Notes: generated by a model not told the origin, from the sequence alone. 64,000 bases of DNA from an uncultured Candidatus Saccharibacteria bacterium (GCA_964481345.1 CAYZTC010000001.1:7766-71765); one strand, 5' to 3'; shown: positions 14,601-64,000, counted from the stretch's first letter. Numbers and translations are program-made.

Positions 14601-17600
14601 CTAATTACACTTATTTCCTATTGTTGCTCCAGTAATAAATGAACGTACCTGACTTGCACATGCAGTACCAGAAAGTGCCTTACCTTTAGCTATTTCATCC
14701 AGCTCGGACTTAGTACACTTCCCTGAATCAAGTAACGACTGGGATACCTGAAGTCCCCTCATACAATACCCTGACGAAGTAGAAAACATATAATGACCAC
14801 CGTTCCCTGATAAATGCTCCGCACCCCACTCCCTATGACGAAGATAAGGCCAATTTGAAATACTTCCATTACTATGCTGTACCTGATGTGCAATCTCATG
14901 TCTAAATAAACCAGTCAGCATTGCACTACTTGCACTCAATATTTCATCTGGTAAGCACGATATTACCCCTGCTCCACTCCAACACCATGCTCCCGCTTCA
15001 GTTAACCTTCCGTACAATCCAGATCCAGGATATAAAAACTCTAGTCTTGCATTCACACCAAACTCTGCTGCTACTTGATTCAAAATATCAAATGCTGTAC
15101 CAGAAAGTACACTTCCACCATATGACATACTTCCTCCAGTATAGTTTGGATATACCGACCCACCCGTACCAACACACAGCTGACCTGTCGCTCTACTTGG
15201 ATCCTTTATTTTTGAAGGTAGTGAGGCACCTGGCTTAATCCATTGATATATCTCTTTTATTCCGGGGTTATCACCTTTTCCATTAAGATACTCAGGTCCA
15301 GTAATGCCGTTTACATCCCGAGTAGCATCGCAAGTACCAGTCAGATATCTTGTAGCCCATGATGTCCAGTAATCAAGTCCTGGACAGCTATAGTTGTGGC
15401 TGAGTGCCATAAAGGTATTTACTTGAGAATTGAAGTCCTCAGCTGGTGTAACACCATCGTTAATCCCAAAATCTTGCACAGGAAGACTGCTGGAGTCGTA
15501 GTTGCTGGCTCCGGACTCATGTAGCCAGATTAATAGTGCAAATGCAGGATCGACACCTTTGGACAGAGCCCTACATATCACATCGTTATAGCATTCATCT
15601 GCATAGTTAACACCGCCTGTCCATCTATCCGCAAGATCCCCGAAAACCTCTTTACTTATTATTCCAGGAATATTTTGATCTGGAAGTGTTTGATTACAAT
15701 TGATTTTTCCATCGCTATAGTCAGGAAAATCAAAATCCACCGGGCCATACACAAGATGACCACTTGTAAAATCAACCGGCTCACTTAGATATGGCTGGGC
15801 TAGAGTCTGCTTTCCAAAAAAACTTAACCCTGCCGATCCTAAAATTAAACCAATACTAAATAATCCGAGAACTATCAAGGCTATAAACTCAATTAATGGC
15901 TTCAAGAAAAATTCTCCAAGTTTCCATCCCATTTTTATTGCCCAATCAGCAACAAAAGCTGCTATATTCCCTATTCCAGGAATAATGCTACCAAGTGCTT
16001 GAACAAGTACCTTCTGAATAACACTAGTAAGAAGTTGCTTAAAGGGCATCTTAAGCAATTGCCCTACAGTCATCTGGGAAAAATCTGAGAGATATCTCTG
16101 CGCAAACTTTGCAAAAGGCCTCTTCAAAGCATTAGCGATACCTCTTCCAAGTTTATTATTTGCAAAGTCCTCAAGTTTCTTTTTGACGTGAAAAAGAAAC
16201 TGACCTGGCATAATTTTTGCCAATCTTTCTGCAATATGAGGGGGCATCCTTCCCATATCACTAAGTTTTTTCCAGAATCTCCCATCCCAAAAGATACCTT
16301 TTGCGATATTTACTGGATGCCAGTAGTAATATGCATTTGCTACCTTGCCCAGTATATTGTTCTTCCCCTCAAGCCAGCTAAGTCCAAACTCACGATCACC
16401 TGGAACGATTCTACTTTCATATTTAGTAGCAAAATGGTCTAGTGCACCACTTAGCCAGAGATCATTCTTATAATCAAATAGGGTTCCCATCATTAAGCTT
16501 CCAAGAAACTTTCCCTTCAGCTCATCCTTTATCCACGACCTAAGGTACATCCCCTGACCTATCCTTCCCCCTATAGACCCTAAAAAGCCTCCTCTTCCAC
16601 CCAGCACTCTCTGAACAAACTGGCTTCTAAAGGCTAAAGCCTTATTAATCTGTCTCTGGGTAAAATTGCCGCTAGATCTCATGTACCCAATTTCCTCATC
16701 CAGCTTTCTTATCACGCTTTGAGTAGATGCATATCGAATTCGGGCTGTTGTATCAGAATCCTTTTCTTCCACAACTCTCTGGCCAGCTACATATCTGACT
16801 GTTTTTTCTATCTTAGTATAATACCCAAGATCATCATAAATACTAGAGTCACCCCATATCCCATCCACAGATCTAACTAGGTTATCACCAGAGATATTTA
16901 TTCCAGCTCTTGGCTGGATACTGGCTAAATGATTTCCTAAGGCCTGTCTTCTCCGATTTTTATCAGTTAAACTACCAGTATCTCTAACTCCAGTGATAAA
17001 CTGGCTCCTCAAACTCCTCTTTTCTGCACTAGTCAGTAGAATTCCATTCTCCCTTTCGTACTGCTTTATTGCTGCATCTATCTCTGAGTTCCAACCTCTA
17101 GACAGAGCACCTACACTTCCAGCCCTTGGCTCAGCACCAAGTCCTGTCTGATCACCAGTTACTGCATCCCAATGCGACGATAGATCCCTCGACCGTCCAC
17201 GCGTCACCCTTCCACCACCAGGATGGTCTGCCCCAAAACGAAGGGGACTGTACGGACCATAGCCAGTAGCATCATGCATCGTGCTACCAAGATCAAAGGC
17301 AAACCCAGTACTAAAACCAGCATGTTTAGCGTATAGGGAAGAATAAGCTGATTCAAGATATCTCAAATTACCTGTCCATTTGGCAAGTTTTTGATAATCT
17401 TGATACTTTTTCCAGGCAGCATTTATTACTCCCCTTGGATTTGCTACAAATTGAGCAAGAGAGGCAGGTCCAACCTGCATCTTAAATCCTGGAACAGGCT
17501 CTACTTTTACTCGGGATGCAAGGTCTATTTGAAAATTGAAGTCATCAATAAGCTTTTCTGCCGGATATACTACAGGGCGACCTGCAATTTCTGCCAATCC

Positions 17601-17723
17601 TTTTCCTACTCCTGACAGTCCAGAAATATCTACTCCCTCAAGCGGATTTCCACCTTTTGCTTTTTTCGTAGAAAAGATAAAATCAAAAAGCGAACTGTAT
17701 ACTTCATCTTTATCTTTTGGCAT
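14601..17723 (-). CDS. Giant membrane-associated protein with HExxH zincin-like motif and lysozyme/SLT-like segment (cassette gene 3)
   Basis: 1040 aa. Central TM helices (…IEFIALIVLGLFSIGLILGSAGLSFFG…), a C-terminal Cys-rich region with …AFALLIWLHESGASNYD… (lytic-transglycosylase-like) and …LFRHEIAHQVQH (HExxH). No NTPase motifs. Local GC content appears higher than in flanking sequence. Confidence 0.45.
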   Translation of the reverse strand: MPKDKDEVYSSLFDFIFSTKKAKGGNPLEGVDISGLSGVGKGLAEIAGRPVVYPAEKLIDDFNFQIDLASRVKVEPVPGFKMQVGPASLAQFVANPRGVINAAWKKYQDYQKLAKWTGNLRYLESAYSSLYAKHAGFSTGFAFDLGSTMHDATGYGPYSPLRFGADHPGGGRVTRGRSRDLSSHWDAVTGDQTGLGAEPRAGSVGALSRGWNSEIDAAIKQYERENGILLTSAEKRSLRSQFITGVRDTGSLTDKNRRRQALGNHLASIQPRAGINISGDNLVRSVDGIWGDSSIYDDLGYYTKIEKTVRYVAGQRVVEEKDSDTTARIRYASTQSVIRKLDEEIGYMRSSGNFTQRQINKALAFRSQFVQRVLGGRGGFLGSIGGRIGQGMYLRSWIKDELKGKFLGSLMMGTLFDYKNDLWLSGALDHFATKYESRIVPGDREFGLSWLEGKNNILGKVANAYYYWHPVNIAKGIFWDGRFWKKLSDMGRMPPHIAERLAKIMPGQFLFHVKKKLEDFANNKLGRGIANALKRPFAKFAQRYLSDFSQMTVGQLLKMPFKQLLTSVIQKVLVQALGSIIPGIGNIAAFVADWAIKMGWKLGEFFLKPLIEFIALIVLGLFSIGLILGSAGLSFFGKQTLAQPYLSEPVDFTSGHLVYGPVDFDFPDYSDGKINCNQTLPDQNIPGIISKEVFGDLADRWTGGVNYADECYNDVICRALSKGVDPAFALLIWLHESGASNYDSSSLPVQDFGINDGVTPAEDFNSQVNTFMALSHNYSCPGLDYWTSWATRYLTGTCDATRDVNGITGPEYLNGKGDNPGIKEIYQWIKPGASLPSKIKDPSRATGQLCVGTGGSVYPNYTGGSMSYGGSVLSGTAFDILNQVAAEFGVNARLEFLYPGSGLYGRLTEAGAWCWSGAGVISCLPDEILSASSAMLTGLFRHEIAHQVQHSNGSISNWPYLRHREWGAEHLSGNGGHYMFSTSSGYCMRGLQVSQSLLDSGKCTKSELDEIAKGKALSGTACASQVRSFITGATIGNKCN

Positions 17724-17743
17724 TTATACAAAACTACACCAGT

Positions 17744-19159
17744 TTAGCTACCAAACAAACCACCTACTAATGGAATCTTACTTGCAGACTTTTGAATATC
17801 TTGAGAAGCCTTTGCTGATCCAGGAGACTGCTTAAGTTGAAATATATCCTCTACTAGTGTAGGTGCACTTGCTGCAACAAAGTAGCCTGCAAGTATAATG
17901 GCACCCTTCAACTGAATAACTGGGCTTCCAGTACTTGATCCCCCTCCCATAAATCCTGAAAAATTTCCACCCAGTGGATTCGTAATATTCGGACTTCCAA
18001 TGTATCTGAAAAGATTGATTATCAAGAACACAAACGGAAATACAAGTGAATTTACAAGAAGTCTTTTTATCCAGTTTGTTACATTAGTCTTACCCCCCGG
18101 AAGCGACCCAATCAACAGATATATTGGTCCAAGTACTAGATCCATTACAATTTTTATGTATGACATCACTAAAGTGAAAAATAGCTTGAAGGCCGCATAA
18201 AGTGCCACAAATCCCAATATTACAGTAAGAATTATTTTCAAAGAACCAGTTACAATATCAACCAAAACCTTAATTGCACCACTTAAAAATCCTGTTTGCG
18301 GAGTAGCCCAAGTAGCACCTGTTGCACTACCGAATGCATCCCGTGCCATCTGGAGTGGACCACCAATTGGTACAGAATCAAATCCAGGTAGTGCACCATC
18401 CAACTGATTATCTATTACACGAGTAACAAGTCGGCTAATATCTATTGCAAACCCTACTATTGCAAAACTGAAAGTGACAAGCACTAGTCCTACCAATATC
18501 GAGGGAAGTGAATTCATTACAGTAACAGCCACCTGACCCCCAATTTTTGTCCTGAACATTATCATAAATCCTGTAGCAACAAGTATTAAGACAAACCCAA
18601 CATATGCAATATTTCTAAACATTAACCATACTTGCTCTACTCCCAAGTCTTGAAGATGAGAATATCCGGTATCAGCTGCAAGCACTGAAACAGATGCCCC
18701 GTCAGCACCAGGAATCCACTGCCTTGCAAGATGTGAGGGAATATCAACCCCAGGCGGATTGTACAATAGTGCAGTTACCTGCTCATCAGTAGTATTTATC
18801 AAACCTGCTCTAGTTGAAGAAGACAAATCAGAACGGTTTACCCCCGCCGAAACACCCCCACCATCAAATGAGTCAGTCCCAAATTGAAGAACTGCCATAT
18901 CTATAAAGAAACTATTCCTTGTGGCTGTACCAGTAGTAGCACTACTCATGGTATCACCAGTAACATACACTGTAGCATTTTGACCCTCTTGGAAGACCTC
19001 TGCTGCATTTAAGAATGGTTCTGTCGTCTCATCATCCTGTGCAAGAACAACTGAAAAAGAACTCAGTACAAATACTTGAGTCAGTATGAGAGCAATAATC
19101 GATGGAAGATACTTAGTATTTTTCTTAAACCATCTGAATATTTTCATTATTTTGTTCAT
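17744..19159 (-). CDS. Polytopic membrane protein with signal peptide and S/T/G-rich ectodomain (TrbL/VirB6-like topology) (cassette gene 2)
   Basis: 471 aa. N-terminal signal, then a ~170-aa extracytoplasmic domain, then at least 6 TM helices. Confidence 0.4.
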   Translation of the reverse strand: MNKIMKIFRWFKKNTKYLPSIIALILTQVFVLSSFSVVLAQDDETTEPFLNAAEVFQEGQNATVYVTGDTMSSATTGTATRNSFFIDMAVLQFGTDSFDGGGVSAGVNRSDLSSSTRAGLINTTDEQVTALLYNPPGVDIPSHLARQWIPGADGASVSVLAADTGYSHLQDLGVEQVWLMFRNIAYVGFVLILVATGFMIMFRTKIGGQVAVTVMNSLPSILVGLVLVTFSFAIVGFAIDISRLVTRVIDNQLDGALPGFDSVPIGGPLQMARDAFGSATGATWATPQTGFLSGAIKVLVDIVTGSLKIILTVILGFVALYAAFKLFFTLVMSYIKIVMDLVLGPIYLLIGSLPGGKTNVTNWIKRLLVNSLVFPFVFLIINLFRYIGSPNITNPLGGNFSGFMGGGSSTGSPVIQLKGAIILAGYFVAASAPTLVEDIFQLKQSPGSAKASQDIQKSASKIPLVGGLFGS

Positions 19160-19183
19160 CTATATAGTAAATAAATTAAGATC

Positions 19184-20656
19184 TTAGTTAGCTTGCCCAT
19201 CAATTATCAACTGGCAAGATTTATATTCATCACTACTAATTTCAGTACAACTTCCATTAATCACACAATCACATCTCTTTGTCACATACTGCATATATGA
19301 AAAGTAGCCAAACGGCCCATCATATTCACAGAAGTTAAACCTGATTGGTGGCTCTCCCTCCTCAGCAATGACTGTAGCATAATTTACCTCTGGATCACAT
19401 ATCGAAGATCCAAGCTCACTACTTTGCCATACTGCAAACATATAATCAGGCCATACACAAGCAGCCTTTGCAATTTTACCAGAACACTCGACCTTAACCT
19501 GACATGGAGTAGCAACATATTTTCTAACACTCCCACCTCCAGGAATTGTCCTTGCATCTATTTTTATCCTTCCTGCGTTACTTGTATGTTCCTCCATATT
19601 AAGAAGAACTCTAGCATCAGTACTTCCAGTACAAATCCCCATTTTTATACAATATTCAGTCGCTTTTACAAAAATACTCCACACCCCTCCCCATCCTAGA
19701 AACCCATGGTCATCGATACAGGATCTTTCAGTAGTACCTATCACCACTCTTAAATCAGAATAGTCGTCGCAAGATGCAGTATCATCAGGATATAGGTATT
19801 CCACAGTTTCAGCTACGGACATAGGTACTGGCTCATTCCCAGATATTATCCTGGGATACAGCGTTTTAGCAGAATAGGTTGGACTTGCACATCCCTTATC
19901 ACCAATGAGAGTGCTCCCCGGTGCTGATTGCAAGCACTGAGGGCTATACCATGTCTGAGTTTCTCCCTTATGCGTTGTCTTTTCTACAAAATCTAGTGAA
20001 TAATCTATACCAGCCCGAGGTGACCCATCATTCGTCTCAAATACGCTACTACCTGGTGCCTCATATATTGCCCCATAGTTATTACCCGCTACCGTCGGGG
20101 TACCATCCTTTGCATTTACCACAGCCCCTCCTGAATCTTTACCTGCAACATATGGCCATTCTCCGGTATGAATGTCATATCTATTATCTGTGCTTCCGCC
20201 CACAAATTTATTATGCCCATTCCAATACACAGGGTAGGTTATCTCGTGAACACTTAGTATACAATCTTTACTTACCCATAAACTCTCAGTGATGCCTTGT
20301 ACTGATGCAGATAAAGTAAAAGAGGCAGAATCACACACATTATCAATTGCTGGAACTTTCACTCCGTCACAATCTTCCCTCGAAGTGCCAAGTACACTTC
20401 CCGATCCACACTCATAACACGCATTTTCCTCCTCTTCCAATATATTTAGTGTTGATAAACGTGGAACATCCTGATCTTCCAAAATCCTTTTTTCCTCACT
20501 TACGCTTGAATTATCACTTAATGCTCCTGTCTCAATAAAATCCCTCAAAAATGAAAACATTATAACAAATGCAACTCCACCCACAAGAATCAGAAGAGCC
20601 ATCATTTTTTCAGATTTAAAACTCACCTTTAGCTTTGAGAAAATAAGCTTTTTCAT
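19184..20656 (-). CDS. Secreted cysteine-rich protein (cassette gene 1)
   Basis: 490 aa with an N-terminal TM/signal (MMALLILVGGVAFVIMFSF) and more than 25 Cys. No motif recognised. Confidence 0.4.
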   Translation of the reverse strand: MKKLIFSKLKVSFKSEKMMALLILVGGVAFVIMFSFLRDFIETGALSDNSSVSEEKRILEDQDVPRLSTLNILEEEENACYECGSGSVLGTSREDCDGVKVPAIDNVCDSASFTLSASVQGITESLWVSKDCILSVHEITYPVYWNGHNKFVGGSTDNRYDIHTGEWPYVAGKDSGGAVVNAKDGTPTVAGNNYGAIYEAPGSSVFETNDGSPRAGIDYSLDFVEKTTHKGETQTWYSPQCLQSAPGSTLIGDKGCASPTYSAKTLYPRIISGNEPVPMSVAETVEYLYPDDTASCDDYSDLRVVIGTTERSCIDDHGFLGWGGVWSIFVKATEYCIKMGICTGSTDARVLLNMEEHTSNAGRIKIDARTIPGGGSVRKYVATPCQVKVECSGKIAKAACVWPDYMFAVWQSSELGSSICDPEVNYATVIAEEGEPPIRFNFCEYDGPFGYFSYMQYVTKRCDCVINGSCTEISSDEYKSCQLIIDGQAN

Positions 20657-22927: not shown

Positions 22928-23421
22928 AGCTGGACTAAGCAGTACATAAGCCGAATTCTGTCTAGATGACCATTTATCTTCCAATTCGCCAGAGGCGAAT
23001 GGACCCACAGCCGAACTCAAATTTTCAAGATGAGTGCGACATAGGGTGCGGCACTAGGCCTTGCTCCAAGCGGGGGTTACCACGCACTCTTCGATTACTC
23101 TCAGAGCCGGTGGTCTCTTACACCACCTTTTCACCCTTCCCGCCTTCGTTCTCGTCTCCGACTCGAACTACGGCGAGGTGAATCCCCACACAATAAATAA
23201 ATATTTTGGGGCTCGCCTCGTCGCAGCCTCAGCGAAGCTGAGAGCGAAGACGGGGGTTTGCTTTCTGTTGCCCTTTTATCCAAAAGATCACTCCCTTCCT
23301 GCTTTCACAGGCACTTACTCCGAATCGTCGGAGCCACAAGGAGTCCGGACTTTCCTCCCTTCGGCAAGCTCAGAGCAAGCCCCTCACTCACCAAACGGCG
23401 GTCATCAGTAATACTTAGTCC
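22928..23421 (-). ncRNA. rnpB: RNase P RNA (bacterial type)
   Basis: The minus strand contains the P4 5' strand GGGAGGAAAGTCCGGACTCC, GGGTGAAAAGGTGGTGTAAGAGACCACC (P10-P12-like), the P4 3' strand ACAGAATTCGGCTTATG, and a P1 pairing GGACTAAGTA/TGCTTAGTCC. GC-rich in an AT-rich genome, so the three listed + strand ORFs inside are spurious. Confidence 0.8.
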
Positions 23422-26590: not shown

Positions 26591-27079
26591 CTAATTTCTA
26601 GGTCTCTTCCTTGGCCTACAACCATTAAAGGGAAGTGTCGTAACATCTGCAAGTGAAGAAATTCTTAATCCCGCAGAATCCAACCCTTTTACTGCCGCAT
26701 TCCTTCCAGAACCAGGGCCTTTGATAAATACTTTTGCTTCTATTATTCCATACTTTTGTGCCTTTCCTGCAGCATCCTGAGCAGCTTTTGTTGCTGCAAA
26801 AGCTGTACTTTTTTTCGTACCTCTAAATCCAACAACTCCCGCGCTACTTGAAGATAAAACATTTCCATCAGGATCAGTGATTGTTATCATTGTGTTATTG
26901 AAACTTGCATTGATATATACGTTACACTGTGGGACTTTTTTTCTGGCTTTAGACTTTTTTACAGGCTTTTTCGTGGATGTTTTCGTAGGCTTTTTTTCAG
27001 ATTTTTTAACAGACTTTTTTGCAGACTTTTTTACCTTTTCTTCCTTCTTTGGTTTTGTCTTTTCTGTAGTCTTAGCCAT
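26591..27079 (-). CDS. rpsK: 30S ribosomal protein S11 (K-rich N-terminal extension)
   Basis: …NVYINASFNNTMITITDPDGN… …CRPRKRPRN. Confidence 0.85.
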   Translation of the reverse strand: MAKTTEKTKPKKEEKVKKSAKKSVKKSEKKPTKTSTKKPVKKSKARKKVPQCNVYINASFNNTMITITDPDGNVLSSSSAGVVGFRGTKKSTAFAATKAAQDAAGKAQKYGIIEAKVFIKGPGSGRNAAVKGLDSAGLRISSLADVTTLPFNGCRPRKRPRN

Positions 27080-57940: not shown

Positions 57941-58597
57941 TTACTTTTCCACCGCCTCCCTTACGTGCTTATACTGACACCATTTGCAATCCGGATTCTC
58001 CTTTGGAAGAGGACCTTTCAAGAGCTCATCGACTTCCTTCATAAACTTCAAAAACCCTTTATCATCTATGGGCACTTCCAGCCATTTTGGTGGAAAGTCA
58101 ATTTCCACTGAATCACTATCAAATTTCACTTCATCCGGATAGAAAATGAGTAAAGCTAGTTTTGAGATCTTCAACGGTGAGCCGGACTTGGGATTTTCTA
58201 TAGCATATTTATACGCCCAAAGCTGAGATTTAAATTTTTCTACTTTACTTTCTTCTGGCTGGCTGATTTTGAGGTCTACCACAGTATATGTACCATCAGA
58301 GTTTTTCACGAGCAGATCATATTTACCTTTTATAAATACGGAAGTGCCAGGTACAACTATCGAATCGATGTATCCTTCTTGGTTAATAATCTTTCCGTCA
58401 GGAAAGTCTTTATTCAGATCTTTCAAATCCTTTCCCAAAAGACCCCCTTGCACCCTGCTGTTGATAGCAGAAAACACTCCAGGCATCGGCATACTCGGCT
58501 GAATAACCTCAGCCTTAACCTTAAGACAAAAACAAAGCTTGCACTCTTCATAAAGATAAGCAAAGTCTGAGGGAGAGAGTTTGTAGGTGGTTTTCAT
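57941..58597 (-). CDS. Cas4/RecB-like PD-(D/E)xK nuclease with Fe-S cysteine cluster (defence-operon gene 4)
   Basis: Motifs …GKYDLLV…TVVDLKIS (D…D-x-K), QLWAY (QxxxY), N-terminal CKLCFC and C-terminal CKWC. Confidence 0.55.
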   Translation of the reverse strand: MKTTYKLSPSDFAYLYEECKLCFCLKVKAEVIQPSMPMPGVFSAINSRVQGGLLGKDLKDLNKDFPDGKIINQEGYIDSIVVPGTSVFIKGKYDLLVKNSDGTYTVVDLKISQPEESKVEKFKSQLWAYKYAIENPKSGSPLKISKLALLIFYPDEVKFDSDSVEIDFPPKWLEVPIDDKGFLKFMKEVDELLKGPLPKENPDCKWCQYKHVREAVEK

Positions 58598-58628
58598 TTT
58601 TGTATAGAGGGTAAAATAATAATTAAAT

Positions 58629-61600
58629 TTACTTTGTCTCTTTTATTGCATCTTTTAATTTCCAAAACATGCTTCCACCTTCTCGAATAAGATCGTTTAT
58701 TAGTAAATATGTTCCAGATTTAGTTTCCTGATTAGCATACAAAACACTGAATGCACTAACCCATTCTTCATCCAATGAAAAAGTACTGTTCTTTTTCAAT
58801 CGTACAAAACCTTCCAGTAAATATAGTTTTGAAATCTCGAGCGTATCTTTAGGTGAATCTTTTGCAAATTGAACAATTGAATCAATAAGACCATATTCAT
58901 ACTCAATTACACCTTTTGTTTTCTCAAGGGTTCTTCTTACATGATCTGAAAGCCAATGTATCTCAAAAACCTCTACTTTTGTATTCATCCAATGTCCAAA
59001 CTCTTCGAACAATCTCGGATTTTTCCTATTTTCAAGAACCCTATCCCATAAATTACATAACCTATCCTTGCACCATTTTTTCTTCAATAGCTCTTTAACT
59101 TTATTATTATCTCCTAAAATGTACCTTCCTAAAAAATTCAGAAAGCTAGCTTGTCTATCATAATCATTGTCTCTCCAAAAGGCTTTAAATAATGTATCAT
59201 CGAACCCAAACTCCTTATAATGAACAAACGCCAGAGCTAGGTGTATTGCAATACCTTCCTTCAAATCTTTAAAATATTTTCTATTTGGATCCATATTATT
59301 ATTCAAGCTTAATCCTTTTTTGTATAATTTCTGTAATTCTTTATCAAAGAATATTTCTTCGAATAGATCATTTGATAGATACCCTTCCCAGGAAGCAATA
59401 TAAAGATGCTTTTTCTTTTCACTCAGAGGAAAAATTTTAACTGTCAAATCTAGAATCCACTTTTTATCTCGAAAGTAAAAAGAAGGAAGATAATGTCCAA
59501 ACATAAAATATATGGCTCGAGTTTTCTCTTCTGTTAAAACATATTCGTATAACTTTTTTACATCTCTAGAAATCTTCACTTCCACTTTCTTATCAAATTT
59601 TTTGCCATCCTGAAATACGAAGTACACAAATGCTTCAAATGCTTTTCCTCGAACAGAGTTAATGGCAATAGAAAATGGATCGCTGACCAGTTTATCTTTA
59701 TTAACCCCAGAGATCTCTGTCATAGACGCTGTTTCTAATTTTTCATAATCTACGGTTGGATCTGGATAGCGAAGAAGATAGCTGATCATATCAAATATTT
59801 GGTCACGATACTTCGGGAAATCAATAACAACCTTTCCATTACTTTCCTCAAGTAATTTTTTAATTATATCCGCCATTGCACAATGCACGCTATTCCATCC
59901 TGCTAGCCAAGTATCAAAGTCCTTATAATCCCGTTTCAGTGATACAAAAGATTTTTTCTCCCCTGACTCTTTTATCACAGTAAGTAAATCTATCAAACCA
60001 TCCCAATTAATACTATTTAATTTCTCCTTATCTTTACTTATAGTTTCTTGCAAACCCCGTAAAAACGAATAAGTATAATGCGGATCAATCACATTCCTAT
60101 CAAAGAATAGTAATGAACTATTTATGTAGTCTTGTAATCGATTAGGAATATCCGACTGTATGTATTTACCAATCCCCCTTGCATTTATGCGATCGAAACT
60201 TGAATTATTAGTGTTCTGCTTTTTCAATTTTTCAGGAACCCACTCTGTCTTCAGATTTTGAACGATCTCTTTTATTTCAAGTTTATTAAAGACTTCTTGA
60301 GGAATTGGACCTCGTGATATTACAGTTCCACTTCGGAGAGGACCAATACTAGGTTTAGGCTTATAACTAGGATCTAATATGAATCCTGCTTTCTCTATTT
60401 TCTTCTCCTCCCCATTGGTAAGATAACCTATAATCATTGAGAGAACCCTTGAACCATATATCACTGACTGATCTCGATCTTCTTTATCCTTATCACGATT
60501 CTTAAAATACTCTACAACCATCTTTACATACTCACCCTTATCATCATTTGATAATACAGAAAACCCTTTTCTTAAAGCTTTTTCATACTCTGCGCCAGAG
60601 ATAATTTCATAATAATGTTCTGCTTCGAATAACCTGAAAAACTCTTCTTTAAGTTCGTTTTTAAATACCTTAGGACACAAACATAATACAAACAATCTCA
60701 AACGCCACATTGATCTGCTATCAGGTAGTGGCTCTATATATTTTTCATAAACCTCCCTTATAAGATCAATTTCTTCACACTTTTTACTAATCAATCTATT
60801 TAAAAATATTTTTATGATTGCCGCAAGATCTCTCATACCCTTTTCATATGATGGATATTCACTTTCATCAAGTTCTAAAGTGAAAAAGTCTACAACGTAC
60901 ATAGGAAATAAATCATTTATCTCGAACACTTTCTCAGTATTAGACTTTTCACCTAAATTAACGATTTTAGCCATTACTTTTGTAACTAACTTCAAAGCCT
61001 TTTCTGTATATTTCTCACTCATCAGAAAAAGATGTTCGATAACTTTTGTTGACGATAAATCTCCAAAATAAAATGGATTTTCACTGCTAGGTCGGTTATT
61101 CACTGTTTTCATTTCTTTTTTTGTACGTACGGATAAGACGGTTTCTACAAGTTTCAAGATATTCATATAATCTTTCACATCTACGAGAGTTCGAAACATC
61201 TTCTCATATTCAAAACCGTATTGTTTAAATGACCCCATCAATTTCACCCAATTTTCCCTGTGAATTTTTCCCACGATCCGAGCCAATTGCTTTGCGGATA
61301 GTTCACTGCAAATTCGAAGAAATCGATCGATTACTTCCGGATTAAATGTTTTCCTAGATATCGGAATCTCAAGCATAATATCAACAACTTCTGAAGGGTT
61401 TTTCTCTGAAACCTTCAGAAGATAATTTATCTCAGGCGATTGATATCCATATCTTGGTGCATCTTCCGCTTTTTTCTTTAGCACATCTAAGAATCCATTC
61501 TTCCAAAGCCATCTAAGCCATCTCCCATCAGCTCTAGCAAAAAAGTAATCCCGATCTTTCGAAACAAATTTCAAGACATCCTCTAGTACTGCCTCTTTAG

Positions 61601-61652
61601 AAGTCTTAGAAAGTAATTTCTCTATATTTTTATGTAACCTAATATAGTCCAT
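58629..61652 (-). CDS. Large (1007 aa) alpha-helical protein of unknown function (defence-operon gene 3)
   Basis: No NTPase, nuclease or protease motifs seen. Composition is helical-repeat-like. Translationally coupled to the CHAT gene (3-nt gap). Confidence 0.4.
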   Translation of the reverse strand: MDYIRLHKNIEKLLSKTSKEAVLEDVLKFVSKDRDYFFARADGRWLRWLWKNGFLDVLKKKAEDAPRYGYQSPEINYLLKVSEKNPSEVVDIMLEIPISRKTFNPEVIDRFLRICSELSAKQLARIVGKIHRENWVKLMGSFKQYGFEYEKMFRTLVDVKDYMNILKLVETVLSVRTKKEMKTVNNRPSSENPFYFGDLSSTKVIEHLFLMSEKYTEKALKLVTKVMAKIVNLGEKSNTEKVFEINDLFPMYVVDFFTLELDESEYPSYEKGMRDLAAIIKIFLNRLISKKCEEIDLIREVYEKYIEPLPDSRSMWRLRLFVLCLCPKVFKNELKEEFFRLFEAEHYYEIISGAEYEKALRKGFSVLSNDDKGEYVKMVVEYFKNRDKDKEDRDQSVIYGSRVLSMIIGYLTNGEEKKIEKAGFILDPSYKPKPSIGPLRSGTVISRGPIPQEVFNKLEIKEIVQNLKTEWVPEKLKKQNTNNSSFDRINARGIGKYIQSDIPNRLQDYINSSLLFFDRNVIDPHYTYSFLRGLQETISKDKEKLNSINWDGLIDLLTVIKESGEKKSFVSLKRDYKDFDTWLAGWNSVHCAMADIIKKLLEESNGKVVIDFPKYRDQIFDMISYLLRYPDPTVDYEKLETASMTEISGVNKDKLVSDPFSIAINSVRGKAFEAFVYFVFQDGKKFDKKVEVKISRDVKKLYEYVLTEEKTRAIYFMFGHYLPSFYFRDKKWILDLTVKIFPLSEKKKHLYIASWEGYLSNDLFEEIFFDKELQKLYKKGLSLNNNMDPNRKYFKDLKEGIAIHLALAFVHYKEFGFDDTLFKAFWRDNDYDRQASFLNFLGRYILGDNNKVKELLKKKWCKDRLCNLWDRVLENRKNPRLFEEFGHWMNTKVEVFEIHWLSDHVRRTLEKTKGVIEYEYGLIDSIVQFAKDSPKDTLEISKLYLLEGFVRLKKNSTFSLDEEWVSAFSVLYANQETKSGTYLLINDLIREGGSMFWKLKDAIKETK

Positions 61653-61655
61653 AAT

Positions 61656-62780
61656 TTATGTGAATTTACATTTATACAAAATTGGAATAGGAACACTCTC
61701 TTCATTTTCACTTCTATACTTTATTAAGGATTGTAAATAAGCATCTTCAATACTACTATTATCGAAGAGTTTTTTGTAGAAAACACTAGAGAAAGAATTA
61801 GCATGTTTAGTTTTTATTCCACCTTGATACCCAACCACGTATGCAGAGAGATTTTCTTGAGCAAGTTGGAAAGCAAGAGACCCCTTATACTCAGAGTATT
61901 CATCAATTTTGCCTAATTTTCCTCCTGAATGACAAGTTGATAGGTAAACTAGGTGATAGTTTCCCTTACGGAGTTCTGTAAGTAAATCTGATATGTTAAT
62001 CTCCACGTAATATTTGTAATATTGTCTCTCTGGAGATTCAAGATATAATTCTCCATTTGGACCTCCATGCATTGTAAAATGTAAATATTTGTACTCATCC
62101 CAGTGAAATTTTTTCATTGCATTCATTGTTGTATGCCTAGACAAAAGAACATTATCAATCCAAAATTTTTTATCTTTATCCTTACTCTCATCATCCACGA
62201 GAGATTTAATAAAATCATATATTGCAGTTATCTCAGTTCGTAGTCCTTTACTTATATCTTTCATACTATTTTCATCATCACTCCTACAAGCATTTGATAT
62301 TAGCAGAAGGATATTGTTCTCTGAAAGCTCTAGAGTTTTACTCTGTCCACAAGGTATTTGACGAATAACATATCCCTCATTGTTGAAAACTTGTTCCCAG
62401 GGAAGCTCTAAAAATAATGCGCTATCTGAAGATATGATTACTCCACTTTTGTGACGGCTGGTATCAATATTAATTTTCTTTACCAAATATCTCATTAAGC
62501 CAACAAAATCTAACATTTTCTCAGGTATATCGACAGATTCAGTATCAGATATAACATCTGGATCAGTAGATAAAATTGCTGATCTTTGTTTACCTATTCT
62601 TGGATCCAAATTTTTAAAATCATCAATCGGTATATAATTTTTTTTACCAGCTGACTCAATAAATAAATACGTTCCCTTCGGAAGACTCTCAATCTTCTCT
62701 TCTCTTACTTCAATAAAACTTCCGGATATATTAATAACATCCGTACAAGTCTCTTTGTTACCTTTATCTTCTATCGACAT
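61656..62780 (-). CDS. CHAT-domain (caspase-like) protease (defence-operon gene 2)
   Basis: …ALFLELPWEQVF… (the LP[WF]E motif) and a His/Cys dyad (…YLHFTMHGGPNGELYL… and …HLVYLSTCHSGGKLG…) about 45 aa apart, then …KGSLAFQLAQENLSAYVVGYQGGI. Confidence 0.6.
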   Translation of the reverse strand: MSIEDKGNKETCTDVINISGSFIEVREEKIESLPKGTYLFIESAGKKNYIPIDDFKNLDPRIGKQRSAILSTDPDVISDTESVDIPEKMLDFVGLMRYLVKKINIDTSRHKSGVIISSDSALFLELPWEQVFNNEGYVIRQIPCGQSKTLELSENNILLLISNACRSDDENSMKDISKGLRTEITAIYDFIKSLVDDESKDKDKKFWIDNVLLSRHTTMNAMKKFHWDEYKYLHFTMHGGPNGELYLESPERQYYKYYVEINISDLLTELRKGNYHLVYLSTCHSGGKLGKIDEYSEYKGSLAFQLAQENLSAYVVGYQGGIKTKHANSFSSVFYKKLFDNSSIEDAYLQSLIKYRSENEESVPIPILYKCKFT

Positions 62781-64000
62781 TTTCTCCCTCCACTATCTTA
62801 ATCTCTTCTTTCGTCAACCCATACAATATATAAACCTCTTGATCAATCTCATTATCAAGTTTTTTAATTTCTGCTTTCAAGCGAGCATATTTGTCGGTAT
62901 TTCCCGTTGTTTCTTGCAAATCCTGTTGCAGGTCAAGCATAAGCTGGGCTAGTTTCACTATTTCGGCTTGTTCTTTTTCGCTTGCTTCAGGTATTGGAAA
63001 AGTGGCAAGCTCTTTCACTTTGAATTGCGGGAAAGTTTTACGTTGAAATTTATCAAAAGTATTCACAAACCAAAAAGTAGTAATCCTGGAATTAAGAACA
63101 GCAAGAACAAAATGACTATTAACCTTAAAGTCCAAAACTATCATACTATTTCGATCGTTCATTAGCATATCTTCATTTATAAAAACTGCATTTATTGAAT
63201 ACGGTGGAAGAGAAGGTATCTGTCGAACTAGAATTCTTGGATTAACGTATAAATCTCGCGTTCTAGGTGCAGCAAGACATATACCATACTTTACCCATGA
63301 ACCTGACCAATCAATTTGATAACGCTTAACATCTTTACCATCTAAATATTTGTACCAATGTTCACCTTCATTTTTATCCGAGTGGTAAATACGATTATTC
63401 TTCATTTCATTGGTTTGTAGTGGGCTACCTTTTCCTGTTTCGTAAGCAACAAAACCTGACTTAATAGTTGTAACCTTTTTAAGTTGTTTTGATTTCTCGT
63501 TTACCTTTTTCAAAATCATCATCTTTTCTTTATTCTTTGCCAATGAAATGTTAATTATATAGTTGGTACTTTTAAAAGTATCCGGCACAAACTTTCCGAC
63601 AATTTTCAGCTTGCCATCTCTAAATTCACCGAGTGTTACTTTGCTTCTCCTGCCTTTTTTGAAAATCAAAAGACAGGTGTCAACATTGGCATCACCAAAA
63701 ACTTTGTTATAAATATTGATAATTTGAAGACTCCCGACTTCTTCAAGTAAAAACTTTCTAAGAGGAGCAAAGGTATCAATCGTCAGCCATGTATTAGGAA
63801 CGATAAAGCCGAAATATCCACCTTGTTGTAGGAGATTAAAGGCTCGCTCAATGAAAAGCAGGTATGTGTTAAGCTGATAGTTTGCCAGCTTGTAATCATC
63901 GTAAAAGTATTTTTTTATAGAATCATCAAAACTTTTTCCTCTGGCAAAAACATACGGCGGATTACCAATAATCACACCAAACCCACCTTGTTTGAAGACT
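62764..64000 (-). CDS. N6-adenine DNA methyltransferase (gamma-class NPPY) with C-terminal TRD; 5' end beyond window (defence-operon gene 1)
   Basis: The frame stays open to the window end (…VFKQGGFGVIIGNPPYVFARGKSF…). Motif IV NPPY is followed by ~400 aa. Overlaps the CHAT gene by 17 nt. Confidence 0.7.
   Translation of the reverse strand, partial: VFKQGGFGVIIGNPPYVFARGKSFDDSIKKYFYDDYKLANYQLNTYLLFIERAFNLLQQGGYFGFIVPNTWLTIDTFAPLRKFLLEEVGSLQIINIYNKVFGDANVDTCLLIFKKGRRSKVTLGEFRDGKLKIVGKFVPDTFKSTNYIINISLAKNKEKMMILKKVNEKSKQLKKVTTIKSGFVAYETGKGSPLQTNEMKNNRIYHSDKNEGEHWYKYLDGKDVKRYQIDWSGSWVKYGICLAAPRTRDLYVNPRILVRQIPSLPPYSINAVFINEDMLMNDRNSMIVLDFKVNSHFVLAVLNSRITTFWFVNTFDKFQRKTFPQFKVKELATFPIPEASEKEQAEIVKLAQLMLDLQQDLQETTGNTDKYARLKAEIKKLDNEIDQEVYILYGLTKEEIKIVEGENVDRR

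Follow-up and report, generated by a model that had tools for sequence, protein, structure and literature searches.

A CHAT protease gene paired with a HEAT-like solenoid gene next to a type IIG restriction-modification gene in a Saccharibacterium: a candidate effector-plus-sensor module with exchangeable partners

Introduction

Several described systems resemble parts of the locus analysed here. DSR2 recognises a phage protein through its C-terminal domain and acts through its SIR2 domain (PMC10973363). The module centred on the 1007-aa protein of this locus (hereafter BIG) resembles DSR1 and DSR2: an N-terminal effector is combined with a helical-repeat, sensor-like C-terminal region of ~700-1000 aa, and no NTPase is present. 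It differs from them in its effector, which is a CHAT protease, a domain named N190 or a membrane protein, often encoded by a separate gene. To our knowledge, DSR systems have not been described as associated with restriction-modification (RM) genes.

CHAT proteases of type III CRISPR systems are held inactive and are switched on by a sensor partner. The CHAT protein of this locus (CHAT374) shares the protease fold and the His-Gly/Cys dyad with Csx29 (TPR-CHAT, Craspase) and with SAVED-CHAT. It differs from both: TPR, SAVED and CRISPR context are absent, a small N-terminal beta domain is found instead, and the place of Cas7-11 or of a cyclic-oligonucleotide sensor is taken by a predicted HEAT-like solenoid. 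With Avs and other STAND proteins the module shares swappable N-terminal effectors, and haloarchaeal BIG homologues carry a STAND-like P-loop; however, an NTPase is missing from BIG and its close relatives, the order effector-NTPase-sensor being reduced to effector plus sensor.

Two further comparisons concern the RM gene. The 898-aa protein encoded upstream of CHAT374 has the full architecture of single-chain R-M-S type IIG enzymes (Eco57I/MmeI-like) and nothing unusual; it differs from them only in its genetic setting, the CHAT-BIG module being located downstream and translationally overlapping. PrrC, associated with EcoprrI, is a suicide-type effector encoded in or next to an RM operon and acts as a backup layer. 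The module resembles PrrC in that an effector is genetically tied to an RM operon, a guard role of BIG being hypothetical; it differs in having no sequence or fold kinship with PrrC and in accompanying many RM types. The CHAT-BIG module was not found described in the literature on restriction-linked CHAT/helical-repeat systems, defence in bacteria of the candidate phyla radiation (CPR) and PF18165.

Organization of the locus

The window is the whole stretch of 64,000 nt that was analysed. ORF reading recovered the four minus-strand ORFs of the earlier note (Table 1), and the packing given there matched exactly on re-reading: an overlap of 17 nt between the methyltransferase (MTase) and CHAT genes, a gap of 3 nt between CHAT and BIG and a gap of 31 nt between BIG and the Cas4-like gene. 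The next gene, ICMT-like, follows the Cas4-like gene at 23 nt. Since tight co-directional packing runs beyond the fourth gene, spacing alone sets no operon limits; terminator and promoter scans were at or below chance level and thus uninformative on these limits. No CRISPR array was found in the 64-kb window. Together with the defence role proposed below, the locus is read as a composite (a type IIG enzyme, a CHAT-BIG module and an abutting CPR nuclease gene), a joint reading that is on balance probable.

Table 1. Coordinates of the features in the window. Assignments are predictions.
Feature	Position	Strand	Size
Cas4-like / RecB-family PD-(D/E)xK nuclease	57941..58597	-	218 aa
BIG, HEAT/ARM-like all-alpha solenoid	58629..61652	-	1007 aa
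CHAT/caspase-like cysteine protease (CHAT374)	61656..62780	-	374 aa
Type IIG enzyme	62764..64000	-	C-terminal 411 of 898 aa; N-terminus outside window

At base 64000 the MTase frame is still open and reads VFKQGGFGVIIGNPPY. The full gene (L001:6193-8889) is found on the same contig and encodes 898 aa, with the motifs D71...E85-A-K87 (N-terminal nuclease), DPACGSG and NPPY, the last of these being present as previously noted. Pfam matches are Eco57I (1.5e-36), N6_Mtase, TaqI_C and, weakly, HSDR_N_2 (residues 31-128); the PADLOC model REase_MTase_IIG (PDLC03604) matches residues 1-676 (6.3e-117). The protein is thus predicted from its motifs and profile matches to be a type IIG enzyme: PD-(D/E)xK nuclease, gamma-class N6-adenine methyltransferase and TaqI_C target recognition domain. 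It had been taken for the M half of an M+R pair, an assignment that is abandoned: the gene continues past base 64000 into a predicted type IIG fusion with its own nuclease, and an enzyme with its own PD-(D/E)xK domain needs no separate R subunit.

The earlier note had named, as something that would refute its reading, a continuation into a standard type IIG enzyme or a BREX PglX with its usual partners nearby. The type IIG part of this is what the prediction gives; BREX partners are not found nearby. PglX was rejected: the NCBIfam model BREX_1_MTaseX gives 116.9 bits for a cut-off of 500, and PglZ, BrxC and BrxL are missing from the 6 kb upstream of the type IIG gene (L001), which hold small orphans, a 728-aa orphan and an actin-like ATPase. 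The BREX-related systems of PMC12839542 involve DUF499 and BREX components, which are absent at this locus.

The CHAT protease

CHAT374 includes a beta domain (~15-58), a disordered linker (~60-92) and a caspase-fold domain (~113-373). The Pfam CHAT model (PF12770) matches at 1.5e-4 and 21.8 bits, below its gathering score of 24, and no model of PADLOC-DB v2 matched. CHAT374 belongs to a divergent CHAT subfamily that automatic annotation would miss. A word-indexed search returned the query alone; homologues came from an exhaustive HMMER search, which gave 85 cluster representatives, almost all of them standalone and 340-390 aa long. W128, H234, H238, C283 and Y335 are invariant across 70 sequences of the family. 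The catalytic dyad is H238-G239 plus C283, with both residues invariant in these 70 members. The family profile matches SAVED-CHAT (PDB 8tl0, 6.5e-5) with HG and C in register, the dyad residues lining up with LHFIGHG and LNAC of that protein. The dyad is therefore intact, as had been claimed.

The AF2 model (pLDDT 87.5, pTM 0.88) retrieved from the PDB with Foldseek 8tl0 (2.7e-10), Csx29 (8.8e-8) and then gingipain, caspase-3 and separase; a caspase-hemoglobinase fold is confirmed at the level of this model. P0205, a protein of 1245 aa that matches CHAT at its C-terminus, was tested as a possible BIG-CHAT fusion and found to be unrelated. We propose CHAT374 as the effector of the gene pair.

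The BIG family

BIG has no match in Pfam, NCBIfam or PADLOC, in agreement with the previous statement that it carries no recognisable motif. It is not the orphan it had been taken for: homologues fall into at least 270 clusters, full length at ~50% identity, and relatives are found in at least 108 GTDB species. The taxa are dominated by CPR and also include Nitrospirales, Caldilineaceae, gammaproteobacterial MAGs, Legionella and Streptomyces plasmids and one archaeal MAG, a patchy distribution across phyla at ~50% identity. No BIG match was found in phage genomes. Mean column identity is 61% (40 sequences, several phyla), which is unusually conserved for a sensor of phage proteins and could mean a conserved cellular or DNA ligand, or another function.

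The AF2 model of BIG (pLDDT 87.5, pTM 0.61) shows helices throughout and confidently predicts a HEAT/ARM-like all-alpha solenoid. A HEAT-like or a pore-forming fold had been suggested as something to look for. The former is predicted; structure searches gave no toxin-like or pore-forming fold, and no NTPase or other enzymatic domain was found in BIG. The family profile matched nothing among PDB sequences, and structure searches with BIG did not return DSR2. SIR2 had no match in BIG, in N190-BIG fusions or in CHAT374. Within the module BIG forms the conserved core, for which we propose a role as sensor or scaffold.

The relation to DSR1 is transitive. BIG aligns with the C-terminal 800 aa of a haloarchaeal STAND-like ATPase (Halocatena; hhalign probability 98.3%, E 2.5e-14), and the same solenoid region of that protein matches the PADLOC Dsr1 model (1.7e-18); the Dsr1 model has no direct match in BIG itself. 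Remote homologues on haloarchaeal plasmids carry the STAND-like P-loop (nSTAND1 7e-6, AAA_22) N-terminal to the solenoid, and these STAND-type, Dsr1-like proteins stand alone on their plasmids. Against the PDB, the Halocatena homologue gave weak and uninformative P-loop matches alone (E 0.005 or worse), and the Streptomyces homologue gave none.

Pairing of CHAT and BIG and exchange of partners

A BIG homologue is encoded directly downstream of the CHAT-family gene in all 11 loci with readable context (the window/L001, L046, L077 and 8/8 metagenome loci), at -8 to +5 nt. The CHAT-BIG linkage is strict. The scan for CHAT loci used a 12-sequence alignment, the 70-sequence alignment being too divergent. 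No conserved third gene was found downstream of CHAT-BIG in the loci examined; the gene that follows BIG differs from locus to locus almost without exception.

Among ~91 BIG loci, the partner is N190 in 65 (separate in 44, fused in 21), CHAT in 9 and a small single-pass membrane protein with an N-terminal transmembrane helix in 6. Fused partners are located at the N-terminus of BIG. N190 is a domain of ~190 aa with invariant R74 and H125; Pfam PF18165 ('predicted pPIWI-associating nuclease') matches 14/34 members, weakly (best 1e-5), and N190 is on this basis a predicted nuclease-like domain. Against the PDB, the N190 profile gave nothing above noise. Partner types are scattered over the BIG tree, and CHAT-linked BIGs have no clade or special features of their own. 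L046 (CHAT) is the sister of L049 (N190), both from the same MAG. Partners have thus been swapped between closely related BIGs. Within this widespread module BIG never occurs without an exchangeable small partner, encoded separately or fused to it, and the CHAT form is in the minority. The earlier statement that the composition has no described counterpart holds for this pair, neither protein being represented in PADLOC-DB v2.

Association with restriction-modification genes

RM genes account for ~25 of 51 close co-directional upstream neighbours of the BIG module: Eco57I-type methyltransferases, type III Res and Mod, DpnII, HaeII and type ISP. They are found upstream in 3/4 IMG/VR loci and in all three of the closest BIG relatives, and stop and start codons often overlap at the junction with the module. 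The type IIG gene of the window and CHAT-BIG may be co-transcribed. About half of the BIG loci have no RM gene directly upstream, so RM coupling is not obligatory.

The Cas4-like nuclease gene

The 218-aa protein matches PDDEXK_1 (2.2e-9, C-terminal two-thirds only) and PADLOC Cas4 (6e-9); NCBIfam cas4 (TIGR00372) gives 34 bits for a cut-off of 65. Its cysteines (C19-x2-C22-x-C24 and C203-x2-C206) include four possible Fe-S ligands, in a spacing that differs from canonical Cas4 (C...CxxCx5C). Homologues form 773 clusters; the best 120 of these have 63-76% identity and ~220 aa, and the named sources among them are all CPR bacteria. Homologue loci L110 and L112 carry neither CHAT nor BIG, and no cas gene was found in L001, L110 or L112. 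No Cas4-like orthologue was found at the other BIG loci examined; among these loci the gene adjoins the BIG family in this genome only. The nuclease, previously proposed as the R half of an RM system, most likely does not belong to the module and is a conserved CPR gene at the edge of the island.

Alternative readings of the locus

The four genes had been read as one novel system in which the MTase marks self, the Cas4-like nuclease restricts, with CHAT and the 1007-aa protein as a further layer under protease control. The genes are co-directional and tightly spaced, with no convincing terminator between them, and a few other loci do have a nuclease gene after BIG (Mrr_cat in 3, PDDEXK_1 in 2, HNH in 1; Mrr_cat in 2/32 tightly spaced downstream neighbours scanned). 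However, the same spacing runs into housekeeping genes, the MTase is already a predicted complete nuclease-methyltransferase fusion, and both the CPR distribution of the Cas4-like gene, with BIG and CHAT missing from L110 and L112, and its absence from other BIG loci separate it from the module, as does the lack of a recurrent gene downstream of BIG. These data largely refute a four-gene system, which is very improbable; the unit is the pair CHAT plus BIG. Also improbable, if less so, is that BIG is the substrate of CHAT or an effector activated by it, a toxic fragment being freed by cleavage. Bacterial gasdermins are cleaved by proteases of neighbouring genes, and Csx30 by its neighbouring protease. 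The strict CHAT-BIG pairing fits such an arrangement, and so does the habit of CHAT-type proteases in defence of acting on the product of a neighbouring gene, the Csx29 structure being a complex with Csx30. Nevertheless, ~85% of the loci pair BIG with a non-protease partner, often in one fused polypeptide, so that BIG function cannot generally depend on proteolytic activation; in addition, its model has no toxin-like or pore-forming fold, and CHAT-linked BIGs are not set apart on the tree.

Two other readings give more weight to the RM genes; each is unlikely, though less so than those above. Partner and BIG might be an accessory or regulator of RM systems or of their mobile elements, and not an autonomous anti-phage system, acting in control of restriction, in establishment or addiction, or against competing elements. 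The co-oriented association with many RM types, often with overlapping stop and start codons, is consistent with this, as are the high conservation of BIG and the resolvases, IS elements and Tn7-like genes found near BIG loci. Against it, the RM types (II, IIG, III, ISP, PLD-SNF2 helicase plus methyltransferase) are too diverse for one regulator, about half of the loci have no directly adjacent RM gene, the partners are effector-like (protease, nuclease-like domain, membrane protein) and the remote plasmid homologues are standalone. Alternatively, partner and BIG might be a generic guard of RM, in which a signal common to RM types would unleash the exchangeable effector. Candidate cues would be restriction products or DNA ends, unmodified invading DNA and phage anti-restriction proteins; the effector set free would be the CHAT protease, the N190 nuclease-like domain or the membrane protein. 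If true, this would make the module an unrecognised, widespread second layer of immunity, especially common in CPR bacteria, which, as far as we know, are devoid of most other known defence systems.

Proposed function

The favoured reading, held with only slightly more confidence than doubt, is that partner plus BIG is an effector-plus-sensor defence module genetically coupled to RM. The genomic context, with RM, other defence and mobile-element genes near BIG, suggests that the CHAT-BIG pair probably has an anti-phage role. By analogy with DSR1 and DSR2, BIG would serve as sensor or scaffold, with its upstream partner as effector. Once BIG has bound an infection cue, the CHAT protease would be set free or allosterically activated, and its cleavage of host or phage proteins would stop the infection. 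The module would thus form a second layer behind a co-oriented, probably co-transcribed RM system. In this scheme the physical contact between CHAT and BIG, the signalling direction, the trigger and the substrates are inferred, and so is the anti-phage role.

If the effector-plus-sensor reading is true, BIG, a family absent from Pfam, NCBIfam and PADLOC, would stand at the centre of a modular immune system not described before and shared by at least 108 species. Effector swapping could be studied there as a clean natural experiment, with a protease, a nuclease-like domain and a membrane protein as alternative partners of a single sensor chassis. CHAT374 would be a minimal CHAT protease activated by a HEAT solenoid and not by a CRISPR or cyclic-nucleotide sensor. 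The coupling of RM with a second defence layer would be testable. The annotation of the locus is corrected in two places: the MTase gene encodes a predicted complete type IIG enzyme, and the 'Cas4' gene is most likely a conserved CPR gene and no defence component.

Other defence genes near BIG loci

A CBASS system is located directly upstream of the module at one locus (L010), and genes encoding HEPN AbiU2 and AbiV are found near some others.

Composition of the locus

The locus is best read as three elements: a restriction-modification enzyme of type IIG, a module of effector and sensor whose two genes encode a CHAT protease (CHAT374) and a 1007-aa protein (BIG), and a nuclease gene that flanks them but is unrelated. 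The four minus-strand genes were found exactly where an earlier note had placed them, with the same spacing (one overlap of 17 nt, followed by gaps of 3 nt and 31 nt). The suggestion of a single transcript holds as regards this spacing, but spacing alone does not define a four-gene operon, because tight co-directional packing continues beyond the Cas4-like gene (an ICMT-like gene 23 nt off, then PQ-loop, AAA_33, alanine racemase and other genes) and scans for consensus promoters and terminators gave chance level only. The integrated four-gene system proposed in that note is reduced to two genes, those of CHAT374 and BIG.

Features of the window and of related loci (L handles, loci examined; L001, the contig of the window extended past base 64000)
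Feature	Location	Strand	Length or remark
Three large ORFs in succession	window 14601-20656	minus	1040, 471, 490 aa
RNase P RNA, bacterial class A	window 22932-23417	minus	486 nt
Tandem repeat	window 26933-27034		period 12 or 24 nt
Cas4-like ORF	window 57941-58597	minus	218 aa
BIG ORF	window 58629-61652	minus	1007 aa
CHAT ORF	window 61656-62780	minus	374 aa
Methyltransferase ORF	window 62764 to beyond 64000	minus	frame open at window edge
Gene run upstream of the restriction-modification gene	L001:1-6052		co-directional
Restriction-modification island, other CPR genome	L110:1767-7669		
CBASS pair (CD-NTase and Cap15)	L010:1911-3384		
HEPN AbiU2 gene	L051:8878-9522		
HEPN AbiV gene	L104:9996-10493		
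STAND-like ATPase, Halocatena salina plasmid	L100:2861-9652		1493 aa
Hypothetical protein, Streptomyces sp. NBC_00212 linear plasmid	L113:3657-6929		1090 aa

The restriction-modification enzyme

At base 64000 the methyltransferase ORF reads ...GVIIGNPPY. An exact-match look-up with BIG gave the same contig reaching beyond the window (L001), in which the full gene encodes 898 aa. Residues 31-128 form a weak HsdR-N-type domain with an intact PD-(D/E)xK motif (D71...E85-A-K87). AdoMet motif I (DPACGSG) and NPPY are present, as are Eco57I, N6_Mtase and TaqI_C (target recognition) domains. The PADLOC type IIG model PDLC03604 matches residues 1 to 676 (6.3e-117); the BREX PglX models score far under their cut-offs. 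The 6 kb upstream of the gene contain orphans and an actin-like ATPase, and nothing else. The protein is predicted from its sequence to be a self-contained type IIG enzyme, and, since it carries its own nuclease domain, a separate R subunit is not needed. A likeness of the methyltransferase and the small nuclease to the M and R halves of one system is therefore not supported: the former is already a complete nuclease-methyltransferase fusion. The extension past base 64000 thus supplied the missing N-terminus and agreed with one of the enzymes envisaged there, type IIG, but not with the other, BREX PglX.

The upstream run in L001 encodes an actin/FtsA-like ATPase (410+ aa), a 728-aa orphan and five small orphans (201, 51, 143, 147 and 128 aa). 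Scans of the 728-, 201-, 143-, 147- and 128-aa orphans against Pfam and PADLOC gave no credible match. The run may represent a further accessory or defence cassette, or may belong to the same island.

The Cas4-like gene

The Cas4-like protein is a RecB-family PD-(D/E)xK protein (PDDEXK_1, 2e-9) that reaches 34 bits with the NCBIfam cas4 model (cut-off 65). Its homologues form 773 clusters; the best 120 of these are about 220 aa long and 63-76% identical, and their source-named members are all candidate-phyla-radiation (CPR) bacteria. Such a pattern appears typical of a gene conserved within its lineage rather than of a variable defence gene. BIG and CHAT374 are absent near two homologues on long contigs (76% and 67% identity), no orthologue occurs in the roughly 90 other BIG loci examined, and no CRISPR array was found within the 64-kb window. 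The gene is concluded to flank the island and to be unrelated to the CHAT-BIG module; its proposed place as fourth member of the system is given up on account of its conservation in CPR bacteria, of the homologues lacking BIG and CHAT374, and of its absence from the other BIG loci.

In another CPR genome (L110), a 76%-identical orthologue likewise ends a restriction-modification island (D12 methyltransferase, AlwI endonuclease, N6_N4 methyltransferase, RnlA-like protein). As this homologue too abuts such an island, defence islands may insert preferentially at the site adjoining the gene, which would then be a hot spot.

The CHAT protease

The single CHAT374 sequence scores slightly under the Pfam CHAT threshold, and a word-based search with it returned only itself. 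HMMER, run exhaustively over 1.84 billion representatives, yielded 85 relatives, nearly all of them standalone proteins of 340-390 aa. Only W128, H234, H238, C283 and Y335 are invariant in an alignment of 70 sequences; they fall in the motifs HxIMHG and LSxCxSGG. The family profile matches 8tl0, a structure of SAVED-CHAT, and the HG and C residues of the two are in register. The AF2 model (pLDDT 87.5, pTM 0.88) has structural matches to SAVED-CHAT, Csx29, gingipain, caspases and separase. At the N-terminus a small beta domain (about residues 15-58) is followed by a disordered linker and then by the protease domain. The invariance, the alignment to 8tl0 and the fold matches together establish that the His/Cys dyad (H238, C283) is intact, as the earlier note had it, and under selection.

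BIG and its partners

BIG has no match in Pfam, NCBIfam or PADLOC, in keeping with the reported lack of a recognisable motif, but it is no orphan: at least 270 clusters of full-length homologues (about 50% identity) were found. Relatives occur in 108 GTDB species, mostly Patescibacteria; the other carriers are Caldilineaceae, Nitrospirales, Gammaproteobacteria MAGs, Omnitrophota, Elusimicrobia and one Methanosarcinales MAG. The family is absent from the phage genome collection. The AF2 model, a HEAT-like solenoid, is confident (pLDDT 87.5) and consists entirely of helices; neither an NTPase domain nor any other catalytic domain could be detected.

ORFs were called in about 91 non-redundant BIG loci and the upstream gene was classed by HMMs. 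The partner is N190, a predicted-nuclease-like domain of about 190 aa, as a separate gene (44 loci) or fused to the N-terminus of BIG in forms of 1150-1210 aa (21 loci), a CHAT374-family protease (9 loci), a protein of about 205-240 aa with an N-terminal transmembrane helix (6 loci), or unclassified or lacking (about 10 loci). In N190 the Arg of an SLRE motif and a His within AHH do not vary; 14 of 34 members match Pfam PF18165, 'predicted pPIWI-associating nuclease', weakly. BIG directly follows the CHAT374-family gene in every readable context (8/8 metagenome loci, the window, L046 and L077), with gaps of -8 to +5 nt. No gene is conserved downstream of BIG across loci.

Partner types are scattered over the BIG tree, which indicates repeated partner exchange. 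Two contigs of a single MAG (DATDXL01; L046 and L049) carry closely related paralogues, sister sequences with unlike partners: a CHAT protease in one, and in the other N190 preceded by an Eco57I-type methyltransferase. The pattern of exchange is that of a conserved chassis with swappable effectors.

Genomic neighbourhood

Of 51 close co-directional upstream genes, about 25 are restriction-modification components, among them Eco57I-type methyltransferases (which often follow a PLD-SNF2 helicase), type III Mod and Res, DpnII, HaeII and type ISP. Overlaps of stop and start codons are frequent. The three nearest relatives of the BIG of the window all lie downstream of such genes, and so it is in 3 of the 4 IMG/VR loci. 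Strong as it is, the association is not obligatory, since in about half of the loci no restriction-modification gene lies directly alongside. Other neighbours include a CBASS pair directly upstream (L010), an AbiU2 gene between methyltransferase and N190-BIG (L051), an AbiV gene two genes downstream (L104), and mobile-element genes (resolvases, IS elements, Tn7-like genes).

Remote relatives and proposed function

By tblastn against plasmids, distant BIG-like regions were found in 'ATP-binding proteins' of haloarchaea and in proteins from plasmids of Legionella and Streptomyces. In the Halocatena salina protein a STAND-like P-loop (nSTAND1, AAA_22) precedes a solenoid, which aligns to BIG residues 76-896 (hhalign probability 98.3%, E 2.5e-14) and matches the PADLOC Dsr1 model (1.7e-18). 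On these alignments BIG is a remote relative of the C-terminal, sensor-like parts of STAND-type defence proteins and, by a transitive link only, of those of DSR1-type ones. The Halocatena gene adjoins an ApeA-type HEPN protein and transposases, and similar 'ATP-binding proteins' occur on at least 8 other haloarchaeal plasmids. The Streptomyces protein, BIG-like at its C-terminus, starts with an N190-like motif (...SSLREVLLP...); its gene lies beside a Tn7-like TnsA/TnsB(Mu)/TniB cassette.

The CHAT proteases Csx29 and SAVED-CHAT are turned on by sensor partners. In DSR2, a phage protein is sensed by the C-terminal solenoid and the N-terminal SIR2 domain executes (PMC10973363). By analogy with both, BIG would sense an infection cue, cue-bound BIG would activate CHAT374, and the active protease would cleave host or phage proteins; these steps are inferred. 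The conservation of BIG is unusually high (61% mean column identity), which, as a caution, fits a conserved ligand (for example DNA or a host factor) better than it fits a phage protein that evolves fast. Frequent co-orientation suggests that the module is a backup layer to restriction-modification, possibly in a guard relationship.

The design in which exchangeable effectors are joined to a helical sensor is already known. The claim that no system of such composition has been described stands as regards PADLOC-DB v2, in which BIG, CHAT374, N190 and the membrane partner match no model, and the literature search, which found no description of the BIG module. On computational evidence alone, BIG stands as a candidate defence family that is widespread, undescribed and linked to restriction, with a CHAT effector of minimal form.

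Host region

The host DNA has 33-42% G+C and encodes EF-G, RNase Y, PcrA and SecY. This bacterium almost certainly belongs to the Patescibacteria (CPR), since every source-named sequence among the nearest relatives of the Cas4-like gene is from CPR bacteria. The RNase P RNA scores 156.5 bits; its length against a 367-position model implies sizeable insertions. The three large ORFs encode uncharacterised proteins with no NCBIfam match at E<=1e-10, in otherwise housekeeping surroundings. The tandem repeat is short, imperfect and T-rich, with about 7 copies and 68-71% matches.
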